From positions 1-64,000 of IMG/VR virus record IMGVR_UViG_3300021256_004135: a DNA stretch of 64,000 bases; one strand, 5' to 3'. Under the pieces are notes generated by a model. It ran no database searches. It had not been told where the DNA came from and saw nothing but the letters and a program-made list of their open reading frames with translations. This stretch comes from a virus. Its lineage: Duplodnaviria > Caudoviricetes. The position numbers and the translations under genes are program-made. Positions 9,971 to 26,393 of this stretch are shown here, in pieces (position 1 is the first letter of the stretch; the number at the start of each line of letters is the position of its first letter).

Positions 9971-10891
9971 TTATACGTTTATTGCCAAAGCTCTGTTATC
10001 CGAATCAACCAGTATCGCGCCGCTCTCCGTACCCAGCACACGCACCACGATTATCTCCTCCGCCGTGCCGTAGTTAAGCACGGTGAGAGTGACGCTAAAG
10101 TCGCACCAGACCTCGCCATTATCAGTTATACGGAAGGTCTTGATGCTGTTGCTCTTGTAGTGACAGCCAAAGGAATAGCCCATCGCCGTCAGCGTGCGCT
10201 CCTGCGGAAGGAGCAGCTCGGTGAAGAGGGCATCCCAATACGTCCAGAAGGTGCCGATGTTGGCGGTATGGAGATGAAGGTTAAGGGTGAGGTCGCGGCT
10301 CTTGACGCATACCGTTCCGCCCTCGTCATAGGTGCTGCCGGCGCTGTACTTGGAGTTACGGCGGAGCCGCTGGCGTATGTCTGCCCAACGACGGACGTTG
10401 GCCTCGGTGCCTTCCGTGACCCTGCACCCGAAACGAGCAAGGTCTATGTTGTCGAGGCGGTAGCCGTCGCTCTGCACGACATTGGCCGTTGGAGGCGTGA
10501 CGCTGCGTCTGATTATCTCGTCCTCCGCGAAGGTGAGCGTGGGGATGCCGTGCCGCATGTATAGGGAGAGGTTGCCGTTGCTGACAAGGCGCAGACGATA
10601 GGTCTTGGCGAGACGGGGGAAGTAAAAGTCGTGATAGACAGCGGACTTCAGCATCGCGAGGAAGGCATCCGCACTGGCTATATTCCTTATGTGGAACGAC
10701 AACTGAATCTGGCGGCTGTCGAGGACAGGTAGGTCAAGGTCTGCCTCCACGCCGTCATATTCCGCCCAGTCGTTGTAGGCCACGGCCTTCAACGGCGGCA
10801 TCTGCACCAATGCCTTGCCGCAGCCGTCCTGAAGGTACACCCCATAGGCGGTAAAGGCATCGGTATCATCTATTTTCATGCGTCCCTGCAT
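9971..10891 (-). CDS. Distal tail (Dit-like) protein
   Basis: Two similar halves, NDWAEYDGVEADL motif; first tail gene after the tape measure. Confidence 0.6.
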   Translation of the reverse strand: MQGRMKIDDTDAFTAYGVYLQDGCGKALVQMPPLKAVAYNDWAEYDGVEADLDLPVLDSRQIQLSFHIRNIASADAFLAMLKSAVYHDFYFPRLAKTYRLRLVSNGNLSLYMRHGIPTLTFAEDEIIRRSVTPPTANVVQSDGYRLDNIDLARFGCRVTEGTEANVRRWADIRQRLRRNSKYSAGSTYDEGGTVCVKSRDLTLNLHLHTANIGTFWTYWDALFTELLLPQERTLTAMGYSFGCHYKSNSIKTFRITDNGEVWCDFSVTLTVLNYGTAEEIIVVRVLGTESGAILVDSDNRALAINV

Positions 10892-10912: not shown

Positions 10913-10991
10913 TGCAAAAGTACGCACTATTTTCAAGGTATAAAGCCTTTTGAATCAGCGCGTTTTGGATGATTTTCCATCATCCAAAAGA
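10913..10991 (-). promoter_or_regulatory. Putative late promoter/operator element, copy 1
   Basis: Minus-strand TACTTTTG plus inverted repeat TTTTGGATGA-N7-TCATCCAAAA; closely similar to 26315-26393. Confidence 0.7.
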
Positions 10992-11019: not shown

Positions 11020-11727
11020 CTATGAGAGGTATTCCATCCACAGCCTCTTATTCTCTTTCCAGAACTTATCGGGCGAGAATCCAGGGGCTGGCCTATACAT
11101 GGTATCAGTTATCTTGATGTCAGTCAGCATATTCAAAGGCCATATCTTTTCTATACGATAGTTTGTATGACCCAGAACATACCAGACGTAATCCTTCAAA
11201 ACCAAGCCCCTCGGCTCAAAATGCTCTTGAAAATATGGAAATCTGTTCTTCGGGTCATGGTAGTATAAATCAACACACTTCTGCTGGCGGATGGCATCCA
11301 TCAGGATATTCACATTCTCCACTCCAGTGGACTTGCAATCGATGTACATATACTTCTTGTCCTCTTCCGAATCCTGAAACTGCCTCATTGCCGCCGATGC
11401 CTCAAAAGCCATAAGGAACGGCATTGTCCAAGGATTGCTATCGCTCTTCGGTTCTTCCACCAAACGGTAACGATACCTTCTGTTTTCTTCCGACAATGCT
11501 TTCTTTCCAACCTCGTGCTGCAGGCGGCTATCGCACTCTATTTTGATGCCAAATCTGTCGCGGAGTTCTTTCAGATAGTTATGGAATGTCCTTTTGGGCA
11601 GAATCTTCTCCATATTCGGCTCATCGACAAGTTTGTCTATCAATTGGTCGAATGTGATGCCAGTCTCTCCGGCTCTGCGGAACTGTGCAACCAGCCAAGA
11701 AAGCATTTCCAAATTTTTGTAGTCCAT
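11020..11727 (-). CDS. WYL-domain transcriptional regulator
   Basis: N-terminal wHTH (LPKRTFHNYLKELRDRFGIKI) and a WYL domain (AIRQQKCVDLYY, EPRGL...WYVLG). Confidence 0.8.
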   Translation of the reverse strand: MDYKNLEMLSWLVAQFRRAGETGITFDQLIDKLVDEPNMEKILPKRTFHNYLKELRDRFGIKIECDSRLQHEVGKKALSEENRRYRYRLVEEPKSDSNPWTMPFLMAFEASAAMRQFQDSEEDKKYMYIDCKSTGVENVNILMDAIRQQKCVDLYYHDPKNRFPYFQEHFEPRGLVLKDYVWYVLGHTNYRIEKIWPLNMLTDIKITDTMYRPAPGFSPDKFWKENKRLWMEYLS

Positions 11728-11922
11728 CTGATGTTTTTTTTCTCCGTGCAAAGGTACAAAAAATAATTTGTATGCAAAATAAATGTCACACAAGTGTTAA
11801 AGTACCAGACCATAAAATATTTATAAATCAACAATCTAACCACCTTCAAAAAAGATAATAAAAAGACCTCTTCGTATTACTAATGTAGAGCTCTCCCAAA
11901 ATAACATCAAAAAATAAACAAT

Positions 11923-13548
11923 ATGAAAACCGACAAAAAACAAATTTCAGAGCCTACAACCAACAACAAGGTGGAGGCGAAAAACAACAGTCAGTCGCCG
12001 AAGATTCCACCAACTCCCATTCCCATCGAGTTGGCTGACGTAGTGAAGAACGAGAATGAGTATCTGGAGTATCTCGTCTGGAAGGGAGCGGACGACCGCT
12101 ATGGGTATGATATAGGTGAGGAGATAAAAAGTCGAATCACTTATGAACTCAATGTGATTAAGAAAAAGGGTGTTGCAGGATATTTCCTGATGTTTTGGAA
12201 CATCGTCAGAGCTGCTCGTGAGGAACTGGGCGTGCTTGTGGGACCAGGAAGAGGACGCACACCTGGCTCCATCGTGGCTTACTGTCTACGCATCACCGAC
12301 ATTGACCCGATACGATATGGATTGCTTTTTGAGCGTTTCTATAGCACTCAGAGCAAGGGGCTTCCAGACATAGCCATAGACGTTGAAAGCGAAGGCAGGC
12401 AGAAAGTAATCACATGGTTAAAAAAATATTATGGCGAGAAATGCGTTGCACATATCATTACCCAAGGAACAACAGGCTTAAAGTATACTATGGCAGACTT
12501 ACAGCGAATGGAGAGGATGCCTATCGAAATGTACAACGCCCGTCAACGGTATATTCCAGAAAATGAACGGCACATTGGCATCGGTGCGATTAGTATTATC
12601 ATTGCGCCTGAAGACATTAGCAACATAGTGCCTGTATTCGAGGTATTTGACAAATCGAGCGGAGAGAAACTGCGCGCCATCGCAAATGATGACAGTGCTA
12701 TTAAGGATGCCGGACTTGTAAGAATAGGACTACTTGGGCTTAACGTGCTGTCTGTTATAAAGAGTTGTGTGTCCAGGATCAAGAAAACCACAGGCAAGGA
12801 AATCGATATGAAAGCCATTCCTCTCGATGACGAAGCCACCTTAAAAATCTTCAACGAAGGGAATACTATCGGCGTATTTCTGTTTGAGAGTACGGGTATG
12901 CGTATGAAACTGCGCAAATTGAGGTCACTGTCTTTCAAAGACCTTGTTGCCGCCGAAGCCCTCTATCGGCCAGGAACAATGGGTTTATTCGGAAAATTTA
13001 TAGACAGAATAAACAGAGAGGAAGATATAACATACCTCTTGCCGGAAATGGAGCAATGCCTGGGAAGTACCTACGGCCTAACTATCTATCAAGAGCAAAT
13101 CATCCAATTAAGCCAGATATTGGCCGGTTTCACCCCAGGTGAGAGTGCTGTTTTAATCAGAGCAATCTGCCTCAGAAAAAAGGACATTCTCGACTGGTTG
13201 GAAATACAATTCATGGATGGGGGAATGAAGAAAGGACATCCCAAAGATATCCTTGAACAGATATGGAACCAATGGAAAACGGAAGGGTGTAAAATATTCT
13301 ATAAAAGCCACTCAACATGTTACACAATGATGGCATTCCAGACAGCATACCTCAAGGCACACTATCCGGCAGAATTTATGGAAATATTGATAAACCAAGC
13401 CCGAGACGATGAAGCCCGAATGAATGAACTGATAGCTGATTGCCAAGCCAACGGACTTGTCGTAGAGGATGAGACTGCCAAGGTTAAGATTGGAGATGGC
13501 ATTGTTGTAAATATTGATAGAAAGAAGGTCAGAAATGCAAACCAATAA
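11923..13548 (+). CDS. Truncated DnaE-like (Pol III alpha) protein, predicted catalytically inactive
   Basis: VGPGRG, ITDIDP..YGLLFERF, GVFLFESTGM, LYRPG, YQEQ and KSHSTCY...YLKAHYPAEF motifs; PDIAID and GLVRIGLLGL replace PDxDxD and GLxKxDxLGL; no PHP or OB domain. Confidence 0.85.
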   Translation: MKTDKKQISEPTTNNKVEAKNNSQSPKIPPTPIPIELADVVKNENEYLEYLVWKGADDRYGYDIGEEIKSRITYELNVIKKKGVAGYFLMFWNIVRAAREELGVLVGPGRGRTPGSIVAYCLRITDIDPIRYGLLFERFYSTQSKGLPDIAIDVESEGRQKVITWLKKYYGEKCVAHIITQGTTGLKYTMADLQRMERMPIEMYNARQRYIPENERHIGIGAISIIIAPEDISNIVPVFEVFDKSSGEKLRAIANDDSAIKDAGLVRIGLLGLNVLSVIKSCVSRIKKTTGKEIDMKAIPLDDEATLKIFNEGNTIGVFLFESTGMRMKLRKLRSLSFKDLVAAEALYRPGTMGLFGKFIDRINREEDITYLLPEMEQCLGSTYGLTIYQEQIIQLSQILAGFTPGESAVLIRAICLRKKDILDWLEIQFMDGGMKKGHPKDILEQIWNQWKTEGCKIFYKSHSTCYTMMAFQTAYLKAHYPAEFMEILINQARDDEARMNELIADCQANGLVVEDETAKVKIGDGIVVNIDRKKVRNANQ

Positions 13549-13715
13549 AGACAACGAACTTGGTGTCATGTGTAAAATAAATGTAATGCAAAAGTTAATA
13601 TACCCGTGCGGAATTTTCACTCAAAACACTAACTGACAACTAATTGCATTTTTGATAAAAAGTTCTTGTTGGAAGTCATTCGTATTATATAAGCAGATAG
13701 TAATTGCAACACGGT

Positions 13716-14246
13716 ATGAAAACGACAAAGGAAAACACCCAGAAGAAGAGCCTCGACGAGGCCATCGCCAACGCCGCCAATGCGTGCAAAGTTATCTGCG
13801 CCATCAATGCCCGCTTCGCCCAGAATGGCCTCCCCATGCTCGTGATGAGCGACACCCACGGTATGACGGGAGAGAAAGGCAACCGCACCCTCTGTATCGA
13901 CAGCGACGACCTGGCTCTCCTCAACGCCATCAGTATGCGCGAGGCATTGCAAGTCGCTGACTTGGCTGTCAAAATCAAGCAGCGCGGCAACAATCCCTAC
14001 CCTCCTATCAATGTAATTCTCAGCGGCGACACCCGCAGGGGAATGTATTGGGCAAATCTGCTGGATGAGCTGCTGGCCCTCCACCTCAAGAGCCTGCCGT
14101 TCTCCTCGCTCTACCGCGGCAAGCACTATGATGGCAAGGGTCTCTTCATCATCGCCTCCGACCTGCCGGTGGCCGAGCTGAAAAGGGGCTTCCCGAAACT
14201 GTACTCTGATGTCATACTCCTGGAGGAAACACCTTCGGGAGTATGA
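13716..14246 (+). CDS. Hypothetical protein
   Basis: 176-aa ORF with GC-rich codon bias. Confidence 0.6.
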   Translation: MKTTKENTQKKSLDEAIANAANACKVICAINARFAQNGLPMLVMSDTHGMTGEKGNRTLCIDSDDLALLNAISMREALQVADLAVKIKQRGNNPYPPINVILSGDTRRGMYWANLLDELLALHLKSLPFSSLYRGKHYDGKGLFIIASDLPVAELKRGFPKLYSDVILLEETPSGV

Positions 14247-14321
14247 CTTCTCAATTGTTAAAAACTCGGCTGATTGAGAAGAAATTCGTATTTTTGCATT
14301 ATCAAATAAAACTATAATATT

Positions 14322-15047
14322 ATGAATATTACAAACAAAAAAGGAACAATTTTAAGAGATTTAGAGTCTTGGAGAAAAGGTTTTATCGAAGTTGACACAG
14401 AATTACATTGGCAAAAAGGATATAGTGCATATTCATTGGCCGAATTTATACTTAATCATAATGGATTGCATCTAATTAACAACCTGTTGCAAGAAGTATC
14501 TGACAAAAAGTATAACATAAGTTCCGCAATAAAGGCATGTATAGAGCATGAATCGAAGTTTGACAATTATAGACGGGGACGAATGCAGGATCTTGCCATT
14601 TTTGGAGAAAACGGAACTTTCTTTATTGGCGTTGAAGCAAAGGTAGATGAAACATTTGGTGGCACAATACAAGAGGCATACAATGACGGCGTAAAAGAAA
14701 AGGAAGAAAATCCTAATAGTAAAAAGACACAAAGAGTTCTTGAACTCGTAAAAAAATACTACAACCAGAACGACATAACAGAAGAAATCGGTAAGTATCG
14801 ATATCAGTTACTTCATTACCTCGCCGGTTCGATGGCTGAGAATTACAAACTTGTTCTTATGCCAGTAATCGTTTTTCATACCAAAGAATGCCCAATTGTC
14901 AATGGACCAAACAACAAACAGGACTATATTAACTTTATGAAGAGTCTGAATTTCAAAGAGTCGCATACAAAAGATGGTTATATGGCGTTTTACAACAATA
15001 TTGATGGCATAGAGATATACTCTTTCTACATAGAAATAGATTTATAA
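14322..15047 (+). CDS. PD-(D/E)XK-superfamily nuclease-like protein (DUF6946-like)
   Basis: EH...QDLAI...VEAKVDETFG and RYQLL motifs; own promoter TATTTTTG at 14289; AT-rich. Confidence 0.6.
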   Translation: MNITNKKGTILRDLESWRKGFIEVDTELHWQKGYSAYSLAEFILNHNGLHLINNLLQEVSDKKYNISSAIKACIEHESKFDNYRRGRMQDLAIFGENGTFFIGVEAKVDETFGGTIQEAYNDGVKEKEENPNSKKTQRVLELVKKYYNQNDITEEIGKYRYQLLHYLAGSMAENYKLVLMPVIVFHTKECPIVNGPNNKQDYINFMKSLNFKESHTKDGYMAFYNNIDGIEIYSFYIEIDL

Positions 15048-15049
15048 TT

Positions 15050-15649
15050 TTGACGATTCTCCACCTATCCGACACTCACGGCAAACATAGAGAACTCACC
15101 AATATGCCCTACGCTGACATACTGGTGCATAGCGGCGATTTCACTATGGCTGGCGGTGATATGGAAGCCCTTGACTTCATAGAATGGCTCTGTGATTTAC
15201 CCTACAAGCACAAAATTTTCATTGCCGGCAACCATGATGATTGTATGCTGGATGCCACGTTGGAAGGTCTGCCGAATGATGTGCATTATCTTTCCGATAG
15301 TGGTATCACCATTGACGGTATATCATTCTACGGAACTCCTATGTTTGTCACATTTGAGGGTGAGGATTTGAAAGAAATAGAACATTACGAACAAATACCA
15401 GACAACATTGATATTCTGATAACCCATCGTCCTCCTCTCGGCATTCTGGACAGTATCGATGACAAACTGCACTACGGCAGTTCCATTCTACTGGATAAGG
15501 TCTCTAAAATCAAACCCAAGATGCACCTATTCGGACACGTTCATGCCGCATACGGGACAATTGACTGGAAAGGAATAACATTCAGCAATGCTGGTGTTAC
15601 AGATTGGAAGTATGATGTTCGGTACGCCCCAAGGTTGCTGACATACTAA
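15050..15649 (+). CDS. Calcineurin-like metallophosphoesterase
   Basis: SDTH, HSGDFT, AGNHD, THRPP and FGHVH motifs. Confidence 0.9.
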   Translation: MTILHLSDTHGKHRELTNMPYADILVHSGDFTMAGGDMEALDFIEWLCDLPYKHKIFIAGNHDDCMLDATLEGLPNDVHYLSDSGITIDGISFYGTPMFVTFEGEDLKEIEHYEQIPDNIDILITHRPPLGILDSIDDKLHYGSSILLDKVSKIKPKMHLFGHVHAAYGTIDWKGITFSNAGVTDWKYDVRYAPRLLTY

Positions 15650-15861
15650 AAAGAGGCAGTCAACTCGTGACCGCCTCGCTTCACATTAAAAAATAGGGTT
15701 TATGAAAAACCTTTATGTATAAAAAAACGTAACTGTTCCAATATTATTGTATCTCGAAAACCAGGAAAAAAAGCGGCACCCTGAAAAAGAGTGCCGTTTC
15801 TTGTTTGTGATATTGTAACTTCCGGTGACATAATTACGCGATATTACCCGTTTTATTGTGT

Positions 15862-18800
15862 TCACGACGACCTCAACTGCATACCTCTCGACTGCATATC
15901 CCTCATAATGTTCTTGATGACGTGTAACTCCTCGGTGTTCGTCTCTATACGCTGCACGCTACCGTATATGGCCGCCACAGTCTGCTGTATGATGATGGTG
16001 TTGTCACGGATGGAAGCCGTATCCTCCTGAATGGCCGTGGCGCGGCCTCCGAGGTCGTCGATGCTCTCCTGCGAGGCTTGCGCGAAACCCCTCGACGAGG
16101 CCGTGCGGTCTCTGGCGGAATCCTCCAACCCAATACCGGCAGCATTTAGTTGATTTAGTAGACTCTGATACAACTCCTTTGCACCATCAATCTGCGTTCT
16201 CAATCCATCCGCAAGACCCACAAAAGCCTCGTTAGTCCAGATATAGTTTCCAAATTCATCCTGGTCAAGTCCAGCATTGGCGGCATAGTCCTGGAGATAC
16301 TTATTAAGCCTCTGCATCAACGGCTGCACAAACACGGTCTGCGTGACCATGTTACGAATCATATCATCAATACTCTCATTGATTTTATCGATGGCCGCCT
16401 CGAAATTGGTTCCAAACTTCTTGAAGATGTCAAGCCACGTATTCACAATACTTTGGAAGTCGGAGCCTGCCAGACTCTCAAACATATTCCTCAAAGAATC
16501 CGTCATCTGGTATTCTATCTCGCGGATATTACGAAGAGCCTCCGCCGCCTTTTCCTCGTCACCGGCCAGAAGACTTGCAAGATACTCGGCTTCATAGATA
16601 TTCTTGTTAATCTGTAGAGCTTGGTTGTTGAGATTGAATAGGTTTGTACTGTCGAATGAGTTATCCCAATAGGCTTCCTCAAACTCCTTTTTCAAAGCCT
16701 CCAGCCTTTCATACTGATTCTGCACGTATCCAGCAATAGCCCATCCTATACCGTTGGCAATGGAATAATCCATATTGCTTCTGGTGAAGTCCGAGTGAGA
16801 CACCGAGTCCCCGATAGCCTGTAAAGCAGCATCAAAAATGGTGTTGAAAATCCTTGCGCTGATATGCGGTATGTCCGTTCCGAACATAAAGTTACCAGTG
16901 CCACCGGCATCGTTGTACATCATTTCCCTAAGTCTCATGGCCGCTGCCGTGTAGTACATCTGCCATTCATAAGGCAAGGCTGCCGGATTGTTTGTGTACA
17001 ACGCTCCCCACATACCATTTCCCTCCGGCGTTATTCCGTAGCCGTTTCGGTTCATCGCGTCTCTCCAAGCCCACGCGCTTCGGGTCGTGTTGAACCTATT
17101 TTCGTCAAGGGTGTTGAAGAACTCCAGCATAGCCGAAGCGTAGTTTTTGTAGTCGAGACCCGTAATGGTGCCTGCCATCGACTTGACACTCGCGTTGATA
17201 CTATTGATGCCAGACAGTATGTCGGACATATATGAGATAGATTCTTCCACACGGGCTTGATATTCCGCCTCTTTCTGCGCTTCGCTCTTGAAAATGGAAG
17301 TCAGCACCCCTTGGCCGATGCCCAGCACCGCACCGATGAGTGCGCCCCATCCGCCTCCTATCTGCGCACCGGCGGCTGCATAGCCTCCGGCGGTACTGAT
17401 GGTGTCGGCGATGCTCTGGAAGGTATCGGCCATCTTCTCCAGATGGGCGTTGTTGGTAGCCTCCGCGAACTCCCTCATGGCACTGGCAAGTCCGCTGGCC
17501 AGAGACGAAATTTTCTGTAGGCCGTTCAAGAGAAACTCCACGCCCTGCTCCACGGTCTCCTTGCTATCGCCACTGAAAGCGTCCTTGAAGGCATCCTTTA
17601 GCGTGTAACCGCCCTTGCCCATCTGCTGTATCTCACGCTTGACCTTGCGGACATTCTCGATGAACTGGCGAAACTCCGCCTCGGTGGTATTGCTGTCGCC
17701 ATACTCGTTTCGGAACTCCTCCAAGGTCATCTTCTCCATCTGACGGAGCTTCTCGATGGCTATCTTGACATTGGCGTAGGTCTGCTCGGCAAAGACATCG
17801 CCGATAGAGTTTTCGATGAACTCACGCTGTATGTTCCTCATACTCTCGGAATACTGGCGTTCCAGTTCCTTGAGGGCGGCTTGCATGGCTTTTTTCTTCT
17901 TGGGGTCTGTCTCCACCATCATGGCGGACTGCAACTCCCTGCGTTTCTGCTCGCTCTCCTCGGTGAGTTCCGTGACCTTCTGCTGGTATCCGGCATAGTC
18001 GCCTATGAGTTCGGCGTAGAGTTCCTTCATCTTGGCGCGGTACGCCTCATCGAAGAGCGCGAGCTGATCCTGCGTAGCTCCCTTCTCCTCCAGCACCTTG
18101 CGGTCTTCCTGATAGCGGCGTTCAAGATTGAGACGCTGCGACAGAAAGGACTGGCTCTGACCTATGGCCTCGCGCATGGCCTCGGCCTCCTGCTGTCGCC
18201 ACTTGGCATCGGCGTTATCGCGGATGGTCTGCATCTCGTTGTATATCTCCACCATACCCTCTCGGTACGCTTCCAGTTCCTCGGTGGAGAGACCACTGTT
18301 CTCATCCACGGTCTTGTCGGCGGCGTAGGGGTTGGCCTTCTCGTCCTGGTCTGGATGCGCAGCAGCCCATTCCTTGGCTTTGAGTCCCTTCCACTTGCGC
18401 TCCTTCTCTTTCTCCTGCTCGTCAATCTGCGCCACCTCTTTCTCGTGATTGAGTTTGAGCTGCCGCAGGGTCTTTTTCAAGCCGTCCGCCATCGCGTCGA
18501 TACTTATCTGCTCGATGTCCCACTGGGTCTGCTGCTCCATTCTCGCCGTGGCCTCGCGGTAGGCAGCCAGTGCTTTGAGGTATTCCTTCTTCAACCGCTC
18601 GCATTCGGCCTCGTACTTCTCCAGCCGTTTGAGGTCGTCATTGTCGGGGGCTTCCTCGATATTGGCCCCTTTGAGTATCTCGGCGGCTTTCTTGGCGGCA
18701 TCGGACTGCTTCTCAATGAGGTCGTTGAGTTTCTTTTCAGCCTCCTTGTACGCTTCCTCGTCTGCCTGGTAACGCCGTTTCGCCTCGTCGAATGCCCTCA

Positions 18801-20325
18801 CGCTGAACGGCGTATGCAGCGCGTCGTAGTCCTGATAGCCGGGGGTGTTCCTGTTGGCCTCCAAGTCGTCGTACATGAACTGCTGGGCGGAGTTGTATCT
18901 GGTGGCGGCCTCGTCATAAGCCTCCTTGGCCTTGACATACTCCTTGGCGGCTTTCATGATGTCCTCGTCGAGAGAGGCGGCAATGGCGCGCTGCACCTGC
19001 GCGCTGACAAAGGCATCGGTGTTCTTGACAAGGAGGTTCTCCGCATCCGCCACGCTGTGGATGGACACGCCCAGGTCGTCGAAGGCTTTCTTGTTCTTCT
19101 CGATAAACTTCTTCTTCTCCTCCAGGGAGTCCCCTATCTTGTTCCACTGGTTCTGGAGCTTCTTTATCCCGGCCACGGGCGCGCTGCCCAGTTCGCCGAC
19201 CTTCTCCTTGAACTCCTCCACGGCTTTCTTCGCCTCCTCGATTTTCTCTTTCTGCTCTTTCTGTCTCCGCACAAAGATGCCTATGATGCTCACGGCTGCG
19301 GTGGCTGCTGTGAGGATGAGTCCGAGGGGGTTGGCGCGCAACGCCGCCCACAACGCCCTGACGCTCACCGTGGCGGTGGTCGCACCCATGGAGACACCGA
19401 TGAAGGCGGTCTTGAGTTTCGACAGCATAAGCATGAAGGCGGAGTTCTTCTGGAGCGTCCGCATCACGGTCTGGAGTCCCATCATGGCGGCGATGCAGCC
19501 CTGCACCTTGGTCTGCACCTTCTGGAGGTCTTCGCTCGCCGTACCGAAGATAGCCAAGGCACCCTGCACCGCGCTGAACCCTCCCACCAGTCCTTGCAGA
19601 CCCGACACAGCACCCTGCAAGCCAGCGGTGTTGGTGGCCAACAGTTGGGTCTCCTTGTTGACCTCGTTGATGGTCATGCCAAGGTCACGGGCTTTGGCTT
19701 GCAGTTCCTTGTAGGCATCGGAGCCTTTGACGGCGGCCACGGCCATCTCGCCGCCCTGCTCCCTCGCGGACAGTATCATCTGCTGCATCTCGCCTCTGAC
19801 CTGCATCAGTTGGGTGCGCAGCCGTGTGTGGGTGTTGCCTGCCTCCTCCGCGCTGTGGGTGATGTTCTTGAACTTGCCGTCCTGATCCTGCAAGGTGCGT
19901 GTGACTTCGGCAATCTCCTTGCCCACGTCCTTGTACATCCCTATCATGCCGCCCAGTTCACGCTGCCACTCTTTGAGTTCCATTGACTTGGCATCGTTGC
20001 CCGACATGAATGCCTGCGCCGCAGCGTGGCCGAGTTTATCGTATTCCTTTTGGAGCGTCCTGATAGCCTCCTGGTTGGCGTTGGCAAGCGGCTCGACCAT
20101 AGCCCACGCCGTCTCTATATCCTTGCCCACGGCGGCAATCTGCTCTCCCATCTTGCCCAGTTTGCCGCCAGACATCTTGGTCATGCTGTCCAGCCTCTCG
20201 CCCGATTGCTGCACGCTCTCCGTCAGGGCCAGCACGCCGCTCTGCGCACGGTCGAGACCGGCGTAGAACTCTTTCTCGTCGAGGCCGAGTCGGATGTAAA
20301 TGTCTCCGCTGTTGTCGTTGTCCAT
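15862..20325 (-). CDS. Tape measure protein
   Basis: 1487 aa, helical/coiled coil, ANPLGLIL motif; follows the tail chaperones. Confidence 0.88.
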   Translation of the reverse strand: MDNDNSGDIYIRLGLDEKEFYAGLDRAQSGVLALTESVQQSGERLDSMTKMSGGKLGKMGEQIAAVGKDIETAWAMVEPLANANQEAIRTLQKEYDKLGHAAAQAFMSGNDAKSMELKEWQRELGGMIGMYKDVGKEIAEVTRTLQDQDGKFKNITHSAEEAGNTHTRLRTQLMQVRGEMQQMILSAREQGGEMAVAAVKGSDAYKELQAKARDLGMTINEVNKETQLLATNTAGLQGAVSGLQGLVGGFSAVQGALAIFGTASEDLQKVQTKVQGCIAAMMGLQTVMRTLQKNSAFMLMLSKLKTAFIGVSMGATTATVSVRALWAALRANPLGLILTAATAAVSIIGIFVRRQKEQKEKIEEAKKAVEEFKEKVGELGSAPVAGIKKLQNQWNKIGDSLEEKKKFIEKNKKAFDDLGVSIHSVADAENLLVKNTDAFVSAQVQRAIAASLDEDIMKAAKEYVKAKEAYDEAATRYNSAQQFMYDDLEANRNTPGYQDYDALHTPFSVRAFDEAKRRYQADEEAYKEAEKKLNDLIEKQSDAAKKAAEILKGANIEEAPDNDDLKRLEKYEAECERLKKEYLKALAAYREATARMEQQTQWDIEQISIDAMADGLKKTLRQLKLNHEKEVAQIDEQEKEKERKWKGLKAKEWAAAHPDQDEKANPYAADKTVDENSGLSTEELEAYREGMVEIYNEMQTIRDNADAKWRQQEAEAMREAIGQSQSFLSQRLNLERRYQEDRKVLEEKGATQDQLALFDEAYRAKMKELYAELIGDYAGYQQKVTELTEESEQKRRELQSAMMVETDPKKKKAMQAALKELERQYSESMRNIQREFIENSIGDVFAEQTYANVKIAIEKLRQMEKMTLEEFRNEYGDSNTTEAEFRQFIENVRKVKREIQQMGKGGYTLKDAFKDAFSGDSKETVEQGVEFLLNGLQKISSLASGLASAMREFAEATNNAHLEKMADTFQSIADTISTAGGYAAAGAQIGGGWGALIGAVLGIGQGVLTSIFKSEAQKEAEYQARVEESISYMSDILSGINSINASVKSMAGTITGLDYKNYASAMLEFFNTLDENRFNTTRSAWAWRDAMNRNGYGITPEGNGMWGALYTNNPAALPYEWQMYYTAAAMRLREMMYNDAGGTGNFMFGTDIPHISARIFNTIFDAALQAIGDSVSHSDFTRSNMDYSIANGIGWAIAGYVQNQYERLEALKKEFEEAYWDNSFDSTNLFNLNNQALQINKNIYEAEYLASLLAGDEEKAAEALRNIREIEYQMTDSLRNMFESLAGSDFQSIVNTWLDIFKKFGTNFEAAIDKINESIDDMIRNMVTQTVFVQPLMQRLNKYLQDYAANAGLDQDEFGNYIWTNEAFVGLADGLRTQIDGAKELYQSLLNQLNAAGIGLEDSARDRTASSRGFAQASQESIDDLGGRATAIQEDTASIRDNTIIIQQTVAAIYGSVQRIETNTEELHVIKNIMRDMQSRGMQLRSS

Positions 20326-26314: not shown

Positions 26315-26393
26315 TGCAAAAGTACACACTATTTTCAGCATATAAAGCGTTTTGTATCAGCACGTTTTGGACGATTTTAGTTCATCCAAAAGA
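26315..26393 (-). promoter_or_regulatory. Putative late promoter/operator element, copy 2
   Basis: Minus-strand TACTTTTG plus TTTTGGACGA-N7-TCATCCAAAA; similar to 10913-10991. Confidence 0.7.

Follow-up and report, generated by a model that had tools for sequence, protein, structure and literature searches.

A modular WYL-linked nuclease and phosphoesterase cassette with a DnaE-derived pseudo-polymerase in a rumen Bacteroidales prophage: a candidate defence island

Transcription regulators that combine a helix-turn-helix (HTH) with a WYL domain are part of several described systems. Closest to the locus described here are BrxR of BREX and CapW of CBASS, which regulate defence operons, and DriD and PafBC, which activate DNA-damage regulons. 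PDC-S10 is a single-gene defence candidate in PADLOC, palm and fingers are common to DnaE and DnaE2 (ImuC), and Shedu-type and other polymorphic PD-(D/E)XK defence nucleases form a further class for comparison. The locus is an island at positions 11020-15649 of the window, by which is meant the whole stretch of 64,000 nucleotides analysed; the source record is a 103.6-kb IMG/VR provirus, a prophage of rumen Bacteroidales. The island shares features with all of these systems. Its divergent HTH-WYL regulator stands beside an operon of nuclease-type genes and has a predicted fold that matches those regulators over its full length, its metallophosphoesterase (MPE) matches PDC-S10 over almost its full length, its DnaE-derived protein has the palm and fingers and falls in a clade nested in Bacteroidales DnaE, and its nuclease slot, like the Shedu-type enzymes, keeps a conserved core in highly variable sequence that is exchanged between otherwise conserved loci. 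An earlier reading made from the sequence alone (the sequence-only reading) had described a WYL regulator, a DnaE pseudo-enzyme, a nuclease-motif protein and a phosphoesterase here; all are present among the five open reading frames (ORFs) of the island, each at the coordinates given in that reading, and are supported by Pfam and PADLOC matches and by the motifs read. Its remark that the genes differ in GC content also holds, with values from 0.34 (DUF6946) to 0.57 (P176) in an island of 0.43 that is flanked by prophage DNA of 0.51-0.55. The explanation favoured here, at a probability of roughly one in two, is that the island is a modular WYL-controlled cassette of nuclease and phosphodiesterase for defence against phages or other mobile elements, present in this genome as a prophage moron, with the pseudo-polymerase as an accessory.

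The linkage of the genes carries most of the argument. The loci examined comprise the prophage site (L007, L010, L030-33), chromosomal loci (L001, L011, L053, L054) and 14 species-level genomes (L016-L029), the last all metagenome-assembled genomes of rumen or gut Bacteroidales. In all of them, including 14/14 at species level, the WYL gene stands next to the gene for a 176-residue protein (P176) and is divergent from it, and a WYL gene of 235 aa also adjoins the remotest relative of P176 found among 1.84 billion representative proteins. The MPE gene closes the cassette in every locus long enough to show it (12/12 of the species-level loci reaching that far). The sequence-only reading had made its proposal depend on the genes recurring together, and WYL, P176 and MPE do so in every complete locus, with a nuclease between them and in many contexts; WYL, P176, a nuclease and MPE belong together. 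Between unrelated contexts the DNA is homologous over exactly the stretch bounded by the WYL and MPE stop codons, the flanks are different in nearly every locus, and the settings include chromosomal sites as well as the tail module of a prophage. In every locus with flanks of useful length, the GC content of the island is 6-15 points lower than theirs. Neighbours of the loci with a defence or toxin-antitoxin character include HepT/MNT, HEPN, a PvuRts1I-like enzyme and a DNA methylase.

Exchange within this frame is seen directly in three variants of the same prophage, in which WYL, P176 and MPE are 96-100% identical. In the DnaE slot they have the 541-aa form or else one of 890 aa accompanied by a WG-repeat protein and an ORF of 113 aa, in the nuclease slot DUF6946 or else p354 with a metallo-beta-lactamase-fold (MBL) protein, and one swap junction is the MPE start codon. 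Near-identical WYL, P176 and MPE with differing DnaE and nuclease slots show that cassettes are exchanged within a fixed frame. That the cargo between the ends is freely swapped would also suit a recombination hotspot of independent morons, in which WYL-P176 and MPE anchor unrelated cargo and the DnaE fragment hitch-hikes from a site next to dnaE, and the separate promoters, the per-gene differences in GC and the occurrence of MPE alone in many genomes point the same way. The observed linkage makes this quite unlikely, in that both ends always move together into unrelated contexts and the homology ends at their stop codons. No transposon or integrative element with its own ends was found: the island has no integrase or transposase and no terminal repeats, and homology stops at the two stop codons.

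Two observations concern the sites of insertion. In L019 a 323-nt direct repeat (L019:8746-9068 and L019:14581-14891, 93% identical) encloses the island and roughly 1 kb of additional DNA. An att-like duplication made on insertion is a possible origin of the repeat, and no integrase is seen there. In L001 the WYL end of the island is separated by about 100 nt from a tRNA-Ser gene (L001:8910-8999), tRNA genes being a classic address of genomic islands.

The slot between P176 and MPE is hypervariable. In the window it encodes a protein of 241 aa (14322-15047, plus strand) that matches DUF6946 (Pfam PF22187, E 1e-21) and PDDEXK_4 (E 3e-3). Pfam clan CL0236 is the PD-(D/E)XK clan. The catalytic core D90...E105-A-K107 is present, so that a nuclease is predicted, and DUF6946 has been assigned to CL0236 (PMC10584680). 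The nuclease noted earlier is therefore upheld as a PD-(D/E)XK core, but as one of many interchangeable alleles of the slot and not as a fixed gene: other loci have REase-ARP (L011) or unannotated proteins of about 300 aa, in 11/13 of which an ID...E-x-K core is readable. The variable gene is usually followed by a beta-CASP MBL nuclease of 425-428 aa, related to RNase J and aCPSF1, and the gene ahead of MPE overlaps or abuts the MPE start codon, which in this island is a TTG 2 nt after the nuclease stop codon. In nearly all cases the variable gene encodes a nuclease, and it is coupled in translation to MPE, which would not be expected of unrelated cargo at a hotspot.

The MPE itself (199 aa; 15050-15649, plus strand) is MPPED2-like by Pfam, PADLOC, motifs and structure match. 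It matches Pfam Metallophos (E 1e-11) with all five motifs (DxH, GD, GNHD, H, GHxH) intact, and a PADLOC scan, which the sequence-only reading had proposed, recognises it as the defence candidate PDC-S10 (E 7.8e-73, model positions 10-213 of 223). Among solved structures MPPED2 is the closest (E 3e-32), and none of the chains of Mre11 or SbcD passed E 0.01. The gene is under purifying selection, with a ratio of nonsynonymous to synonymous substitution rates (dN/dS) of 0.08-0.16. MPEs of the PDC-S10 type are patchily distributed, being found in 19/301 sampled genomes of the order, 10/401 of the phylum and 0/14 control genomes. Of 16 MPE neighbourhoods from the order, about half include a WYL(-WCX) gene at a distance of no more than a few kb, and the gene just upstream of related MPEs, where identifiable, is a nuclease: REase-ARP (L086), beta-CASP MBL (L080), DUF6946 (L085) or, in two other Bacteroidales genomes, a 3'-5' exonuclease of the DnaQ/RNase T type (L076:8932-9423, L079:8558-9076), a further replisome-like fold next to MPEs of the PDC-S10 type. 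Among the MPEs sampled outside the order none of these partners is nearby, except one WYL gene about 6 kb away.

The promoters of the island fall into two kinds. Two copies of one regulatory region are present, the first (11728..11922, plus strand) ahead of the DnaE fragment, with a conserved block at 11773-11806 and a TTCGTATT box at 11871-11878, and the second (13549..13715, plus strand) ahead of P176, with the corresponding block at 13571-13604 and box at 13679-13686. A 34-nt direct repeat (D1) is common to both, and an alignment of 18 intergenic regions shows that the ~170-nt regions ahead of P176 and DnaE are homologous over their whole length, the conserved blocks reading AAAATAAATGT-N5-CAA-N2-GTTAA and TTCGTATT. 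Loci that have no DnaE gene have a single copy, which is the WYL-P176 intergenic region. A canonical -7 box is found in neither copy. A hairpin (I7; 14208..14250, plus strand; 19-nt arms, 84% complementary), with no T-run after it, spans the P176 stop codon, and the nuclease-MPE promoter (14274..14298, plus strand) follows, with a canonical Bacteroidetes -7 box (TAnnTTTG) reading TATTTTTG at 14289-14296. The same box is kept in other loci ahead of whichever variable gene comes after P176. The earlier suggestion that the nuclease has its own promoter, in a separate transcription unit, is borne out by the box and by promoter regions that go unit by unit. This layout suggests three transcription units, namely WYL, P176 with DnaE, and nuclease-MPE under its own promoter, and the WYL protein probably governs the promoters of P176 and DnaE.

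The regulator is encoded at 11020-11727 on the minus strand, divergently from the rest of the island, and has 235 aa from its ATG; a TTG at 11793 would give an alternative form of 257 aa. It is identified by Pfam WYL (PF13280, E 3e-7, above the curated cut-off), by the PADLOC WYL model (E 7e-12) and by its AlphaFold model, searched with Foldseek. The model has a pLDDT of 70 and a poorly modelled linker; residues 150-210 are beta-rich with pLDDT 76-92, and the N-terminus is predicted as three helices followed by strands, consistent with an HTH. Foldseek aligns it with PafBC, DriD, CapW and BrxR over about 260 columns (E 8e-7 to 5e-4, probability 1.00). No WCX dimerisation domain is matched by Pfam, and the chain stops at residue 235 after a single C-terminal helix; the regulators of more distant cassettes do have WCX. 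The dN/dS of the gene is 0.07-0.13.

The top structural matches of this regulator are the activators PafBC and DriD, and the promoters of P176 and DnaE, having no canonical -7 box, fit dependence on an activator. Both points would be expected if the island were a moron for the DNA-damage response or repair, in which WYL, as an activator sensing single-stranded DNA in the way of PafBC and DriD, switches on end-processing enzymes (PD-(D/E)XK, beta-CASP, Mre11-like) and a truncated DnaE that is active in the long forms and degenerate in the 541-aa form. We regard this as unlikely. A hypervariable nuclease slot, an AT-rich foreign island, presence in 6% of the order and many insertion contexts make up the pattern of conflict genes; no ligase, Ku, RecA-like or Y-family polymerase partner is present; and the nearest solved relative of MPE is MPPED2 and not Mre11 or SbcD. 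The DnaE forms bear on this alternative in both directions, as described below.

P176 (13716-14246, plus strand; 176 aa from ATG) had been noted only as an unknown ORF. It is a real gene, conserved in all loci and down to 44% identity, and the constant partner of WYL, in a family that is tiny, with 60 clusters and 14 representatives among 1.84 billion proteins. Its dN/dS is 0.24-0.64. No family match was found in Pfam, PHROG, NCBIfam or PADLOC, and a Foldseek search of the model (pLDDT 82) gave nothing significant; the best structural matches are all AAA+ cores, with Z of only 4.4-6.0, and the loop at the position of Walker A (GxxxxGK[ST]) reads SGDTRRGM, with no lysine. The model faintly suggests an AAA+-like alpha/beta fold that has no Walker A lysine. 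Partial duplication of P176 is seen at L023:8768-9529, where a 253-aa form has a repeated N-terminal part, and L016 has a second copy of 121 aa with 39% identity (L016:8419-8784).

The DnaE-derived pseudo-polymerase (541 aa; 11923-13548, plus strand) is a fragment comprising palm, fingers and a shortened thumb from which about 40 residues are gone. It matches Pfam DNA_pol3_alpha (E 1e-49, profile positions 1-167 of 260) and the finger domain (E 7e-46), matches solved Pol III alpha structures at E 3e-78, and aligns to residues 381-868 only of Taq Pol III alpha. Neither the Pfam scan nor the Taq alignment finds a PHP, beta-binding, HhH or OB domain in it. Compared with the Taq enzyme, PDIDTDF has become PDIAIDV and KMDFLGL has become RIGLLGL, the triad reading A, D, G, so that the first and third catalytic aspartates are lost and the enzyme is dead as had been read earlier. 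The loss is general in the family: among 55 clusters of the 541-545-aa DnaE, 55/55 have Ala at the first Asp and 53/55 have a length of exactly 541 or 545 aa; at the third Asp, the 52 clusters in which the motif pattern was matched have Gly, Asn, Arg or Lys. A pseudogene or decaying polymerase remnant is ruled out by this uniform length of 541 or 545 aa in 53/55 clusters and by a dN/dS of about 0.2 (0.19-0.27). The PHP domain and the C-terminal part of DnaE carry the contacts with the replisome (epsilon, beta clamp and tau). Having none of these regions, the fragment could mimic or use only the DNA- and nucleotide-binding core, and the range of targets for which it might serve as a decoy is correspondingly narrower. 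As to the role of bait or primer-template sensor that the sequence-only reading proposed for it, the findings weigh neither for nor against.

The sequence-only reading had listed the dead DnaE among the members of the system, but it is not a constant one. The gene is present in 5/14 species-level loci and absent from 9/14, which rules it out as a core component, WYL's constant partner being P176; it is a facultative accessory, though not junk. Its expected conserved neighbourhood is borne out in part, since each island-clade DnaE with a locus examined sits in such a cassette and two distant dead DnaEs stand beside MPEs, but many cassettes do without it. For the repair alternative, a polymerase that is absent from most loci and dead in this one is a difficulty. 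For the independent-moron alternative, a fragment that is island-specific, is held under purifying selection and has the island's own regulatory region is hard to accommodate.

The island DnaEs are about 40-44% identical to host DnaE and in a quick tree with midpoint rooting form one long-stemmed clade (SH-aLRT 100) nested among the DnaEs of rumen Bacteroidales hosts, which rules out recent capture from the current host dnaE. One host row (L045), a wrong-frame ORF with an aberrant long branch in the quick tree, was left out of the later FastTree. Three forms occur in the clade: long forms (885-890 aa) that have PHP and in which the triad is intact, the dead form of 541 aa, and a form of 476 aa in which the Asp is kept and other motifs are lost. 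In all three the C-terminal region for beta binding, HhH and OB is absent. The tree does not group the long forms with one another, and the 541- and 476-aa forms are long single branches. Intermediates exist in nature, from active long forms through N-terminally truncated to catalytically dead DnaEs. That the 885-890-aa forms retain PHP and all three catalytic aspartates is a point for the repair alternative. An ImuABC-type mutasome was rejected, as no partner genes are present; no Pfam or NCBIfam match to a Y-family polymerase or RecA-like protein was found in the window island or in the scanned island proteins of L010, L001 and L011.

In distant Bacteroidales genomes two further DnaEs stand beside related MPEs. 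The order in L085 is small ORF, DnaE724, small ORF, DUF6946, MPE, and in L082 it is MPE, small ORF, DnaE382. Both proteins are truncated and deeply diverged, with Ala at the first catalytic Asp and further losses, and the FastTree places them on long branches that do not belong to the island clade, so that an independent origin is possible. The small ORFs beside them (p161, p133, p153) have no BLAST similarity to P176. The recurrence of the DnaE-DUF6946-MPE order at ~30-45% protein identity is a further point against independent morons.

Host polymerase genes also occur near such MPEs. In L038 (L038:7001-11650; also L039 and L040) a cassette of WYL-WCX, REase-ARP, a 397-aa protein and MPE lies directly upstream of the full-length host dnaE (1313 aa), an arrangement that hints at how a dnaE piece may first have been captured, and in L083 an MPE lies within ~6 kb of a host-like DnaE. 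Both settings would be natural for a hitch-hiking DnaE at a hotspot, and the position of a related cassette upstream of host dnaE would also suit a repair function. Proteins with WG repeats (PF14903) overlap or abut the long, catalytically intact DnaEs (L010:12666-13616, L053:1462-1758, L054:8582-9004), and one is also found at L016:8880-9785, in a locus with no DnaE.

A mechanism can be proposed for the defence cassette. On sensing a signal in the form of a nucleic acid or nucleotide, the WYL protein would regulate the promoters of P176 and DnaE, by analogy to DriD, PafBC, CapW and BrxR. The canonical promoter would drive the hypervariable PD-(D/E)XK nuclease, often together with a beta-CASP MBL nuclease, and the translationally coupled MPPED2-like phosphoesterase, and the nuclease and phosphoesterase would act as an effector pair. 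P176 and the pseudo-polymerase may be induced modulators or targeting factors, the latter keeping a DNA-binding polymerase core from which the catalysis of synthesis would have been lost. A conflict system is argued for because a fixed frame with swappable nucleases, foreign composition, many contexts, patchiness, a WYL regulator, a PADLOC candidate, defence and toxin-antitoxin neighbours and an insulated moron are found together.

Several points weigh against this explanation. Most MPE relatives outside Bacteroidales have no WYL, P176 or DnaE alongside, and MPE is the sole island protein to match a defence-candidate model, PDC-S10 being an unvalidated candidate; the PADLOC matches of the WYL protein are to generic CRISPR-associated WYL regulator models only. 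The fold assignment of P176 is weak, a Z of 6 lying within the stated noise range of the tool. The three separate promoters allow the genes to act independently, and the cassette works without the pseudo-polymerase, which is missing in 9/14 loci. DNA-damage regulons are also under WYL regulators, and a beta-CASP nuclease, a phosphoesterase and a polymerase are activities of the repair type.

The prophage setting bears on whether the island serves the phage or its host. The island is enclosed by two minus-strand genes, that of the tape measure at 15862-20325 (PHROG match to tape measure, E 4e-52) and, at 9971-10891, the next tail gene (PHROG match to 'tail protein', E 3e-53). Its earlier placement between tape measure and Dit is thus right as to tape-measure and tail genes, the name Dit being given by position only. 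Two terminator-like hairpins (15653..15796, at 15677-15653 and 15796-15774, minus strand) stand between the island and the tape-measure gene, and a copy of an ~80-nt phage promoter (10913..10991, minus strand), ending in TACTTTTG with its TAnnTTTG -7 box, precedes the tail gene. Alignment identifies a second copy of this promoter-bearing element at 26315-26393, ~15 kb from the first. The copy at 10913..10991 appears to restart the tail genes downstream of the island. The hairpins after the tape-measure gene and the duplicated promoter ahead of the tail gene imply that the tail operon is broken by the island and then restarted, and the prophage would in this way accommodate a 4.6-kb moron island in the middle of a tail operon. 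No empty site was found in this prophage lineage, the WYL gene adjoining every copy of the tail gene; no other IMG/VR contig with P176 or the tail protein was found, and the INPHARED phage set gave a sole match that is short and has 67% DNA identity. The sister prophage L010 has two additional genes on the minus strand between MPE and the tape measure (L010:18289-19208), one for a protein with a rhodanese domain and one for a lipocalin-like protein, which suggests that the site gathers further cargo.

A phage-side role would be counter-defence or host takeover, with MPE degrading immune signalling nucleotides or host DNA and the nuclease attacking competitors. This copy is in a prophage, and its MPE resembles MPPED2, which has weak cyclic-nucleotide phosphodiesterase activity. 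As a precedent, a metallophosphoesterase of a mycobacteriophage is reported to disrupt host DNA and blunt host defence (PMC12287305). Such a role is nevertheless very unlikely for this island, since the non-prophage loci have none of this phage's tail genes nearby, the annotated flanks of copies elsewhere are cellular genes such as secA, queC/queF and lpxC, and P176 occurs on no other IMG/VR contig. The terminators insulate the island from the late tail operon and it has promoters of its own, as in morons expressed by lysogens, and a WYL regulator with swappable nucleases is typical of host-side immunity.

If the island is a defence cassette, PDC-S10 gains a multi-gene context and a logic of fixed phosphoesterase, swappable nuclease and WYL switch, the rare orphan protein P176 is added as the constant partner of WYL, and a pseudo-enzyme derived from Pol III alpha would be kept under selection in a cassette of the immune type. 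We know of no earlier case of the last, and a search of the literature on WYL with Pol III alpha and metallophosphoesterase, REase-ARP and PDC-S10 found no description of the cassette or of a DnaE-derived defence pseudo-enzyme. A bolder proposal, which we hold as doubtful and put forward tentatively, is that Bacteroidales have repeatedly made dead, truncated pseudo-polymerases from DnaE, which would work in a WYL-controlled immune cassette in one of two ways: by sensing DNA junctions and bringing the effectors to foreign DNA under replication, or by acting as decoys for phage factors aimed at the polymerase core. If so, P176, possibly AAA+-like, and the DnaQ-like exonucleases would suggest a wider theme of immune parts derived from the replisome.

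In comparison with the described systems the island differs from each in a definite way. Its WYL protein, at only 235 aa and with no detectable WCX, is set apart from BrxR, CapW, DriD and PafBC, and the PADLOC scan gave neither P176 nor the DnaE fragment a match among components of BREX or CBASS. In contrast to DnaE and DnaE2 (ImuC), the 541-aa fragment is without PHP, beta-binding, HhH and OB domains, has 2/3 of the catalytic aspartates replaced and is restricted to the island, unlike a replicative or SOS polymerase; relative to the ImuA-ImuB-DnaE2 cassette, there are no partners of the ImuA or ImuB type and the DnaE is truncated and, as judged from its residues, inactive. The slot nucleases, unlike Shedu, have in Pfam no match to DUF4263 or, besides DUF6946 and REase-ARP, to any named restriction-enzyme family, and are always paired with MPE. 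PDC-S10 is a single-gene candidate, but in the island several genes make up the cassette, with the MPE gene always last and coupled in translation to a nuclease that can be exchanged.

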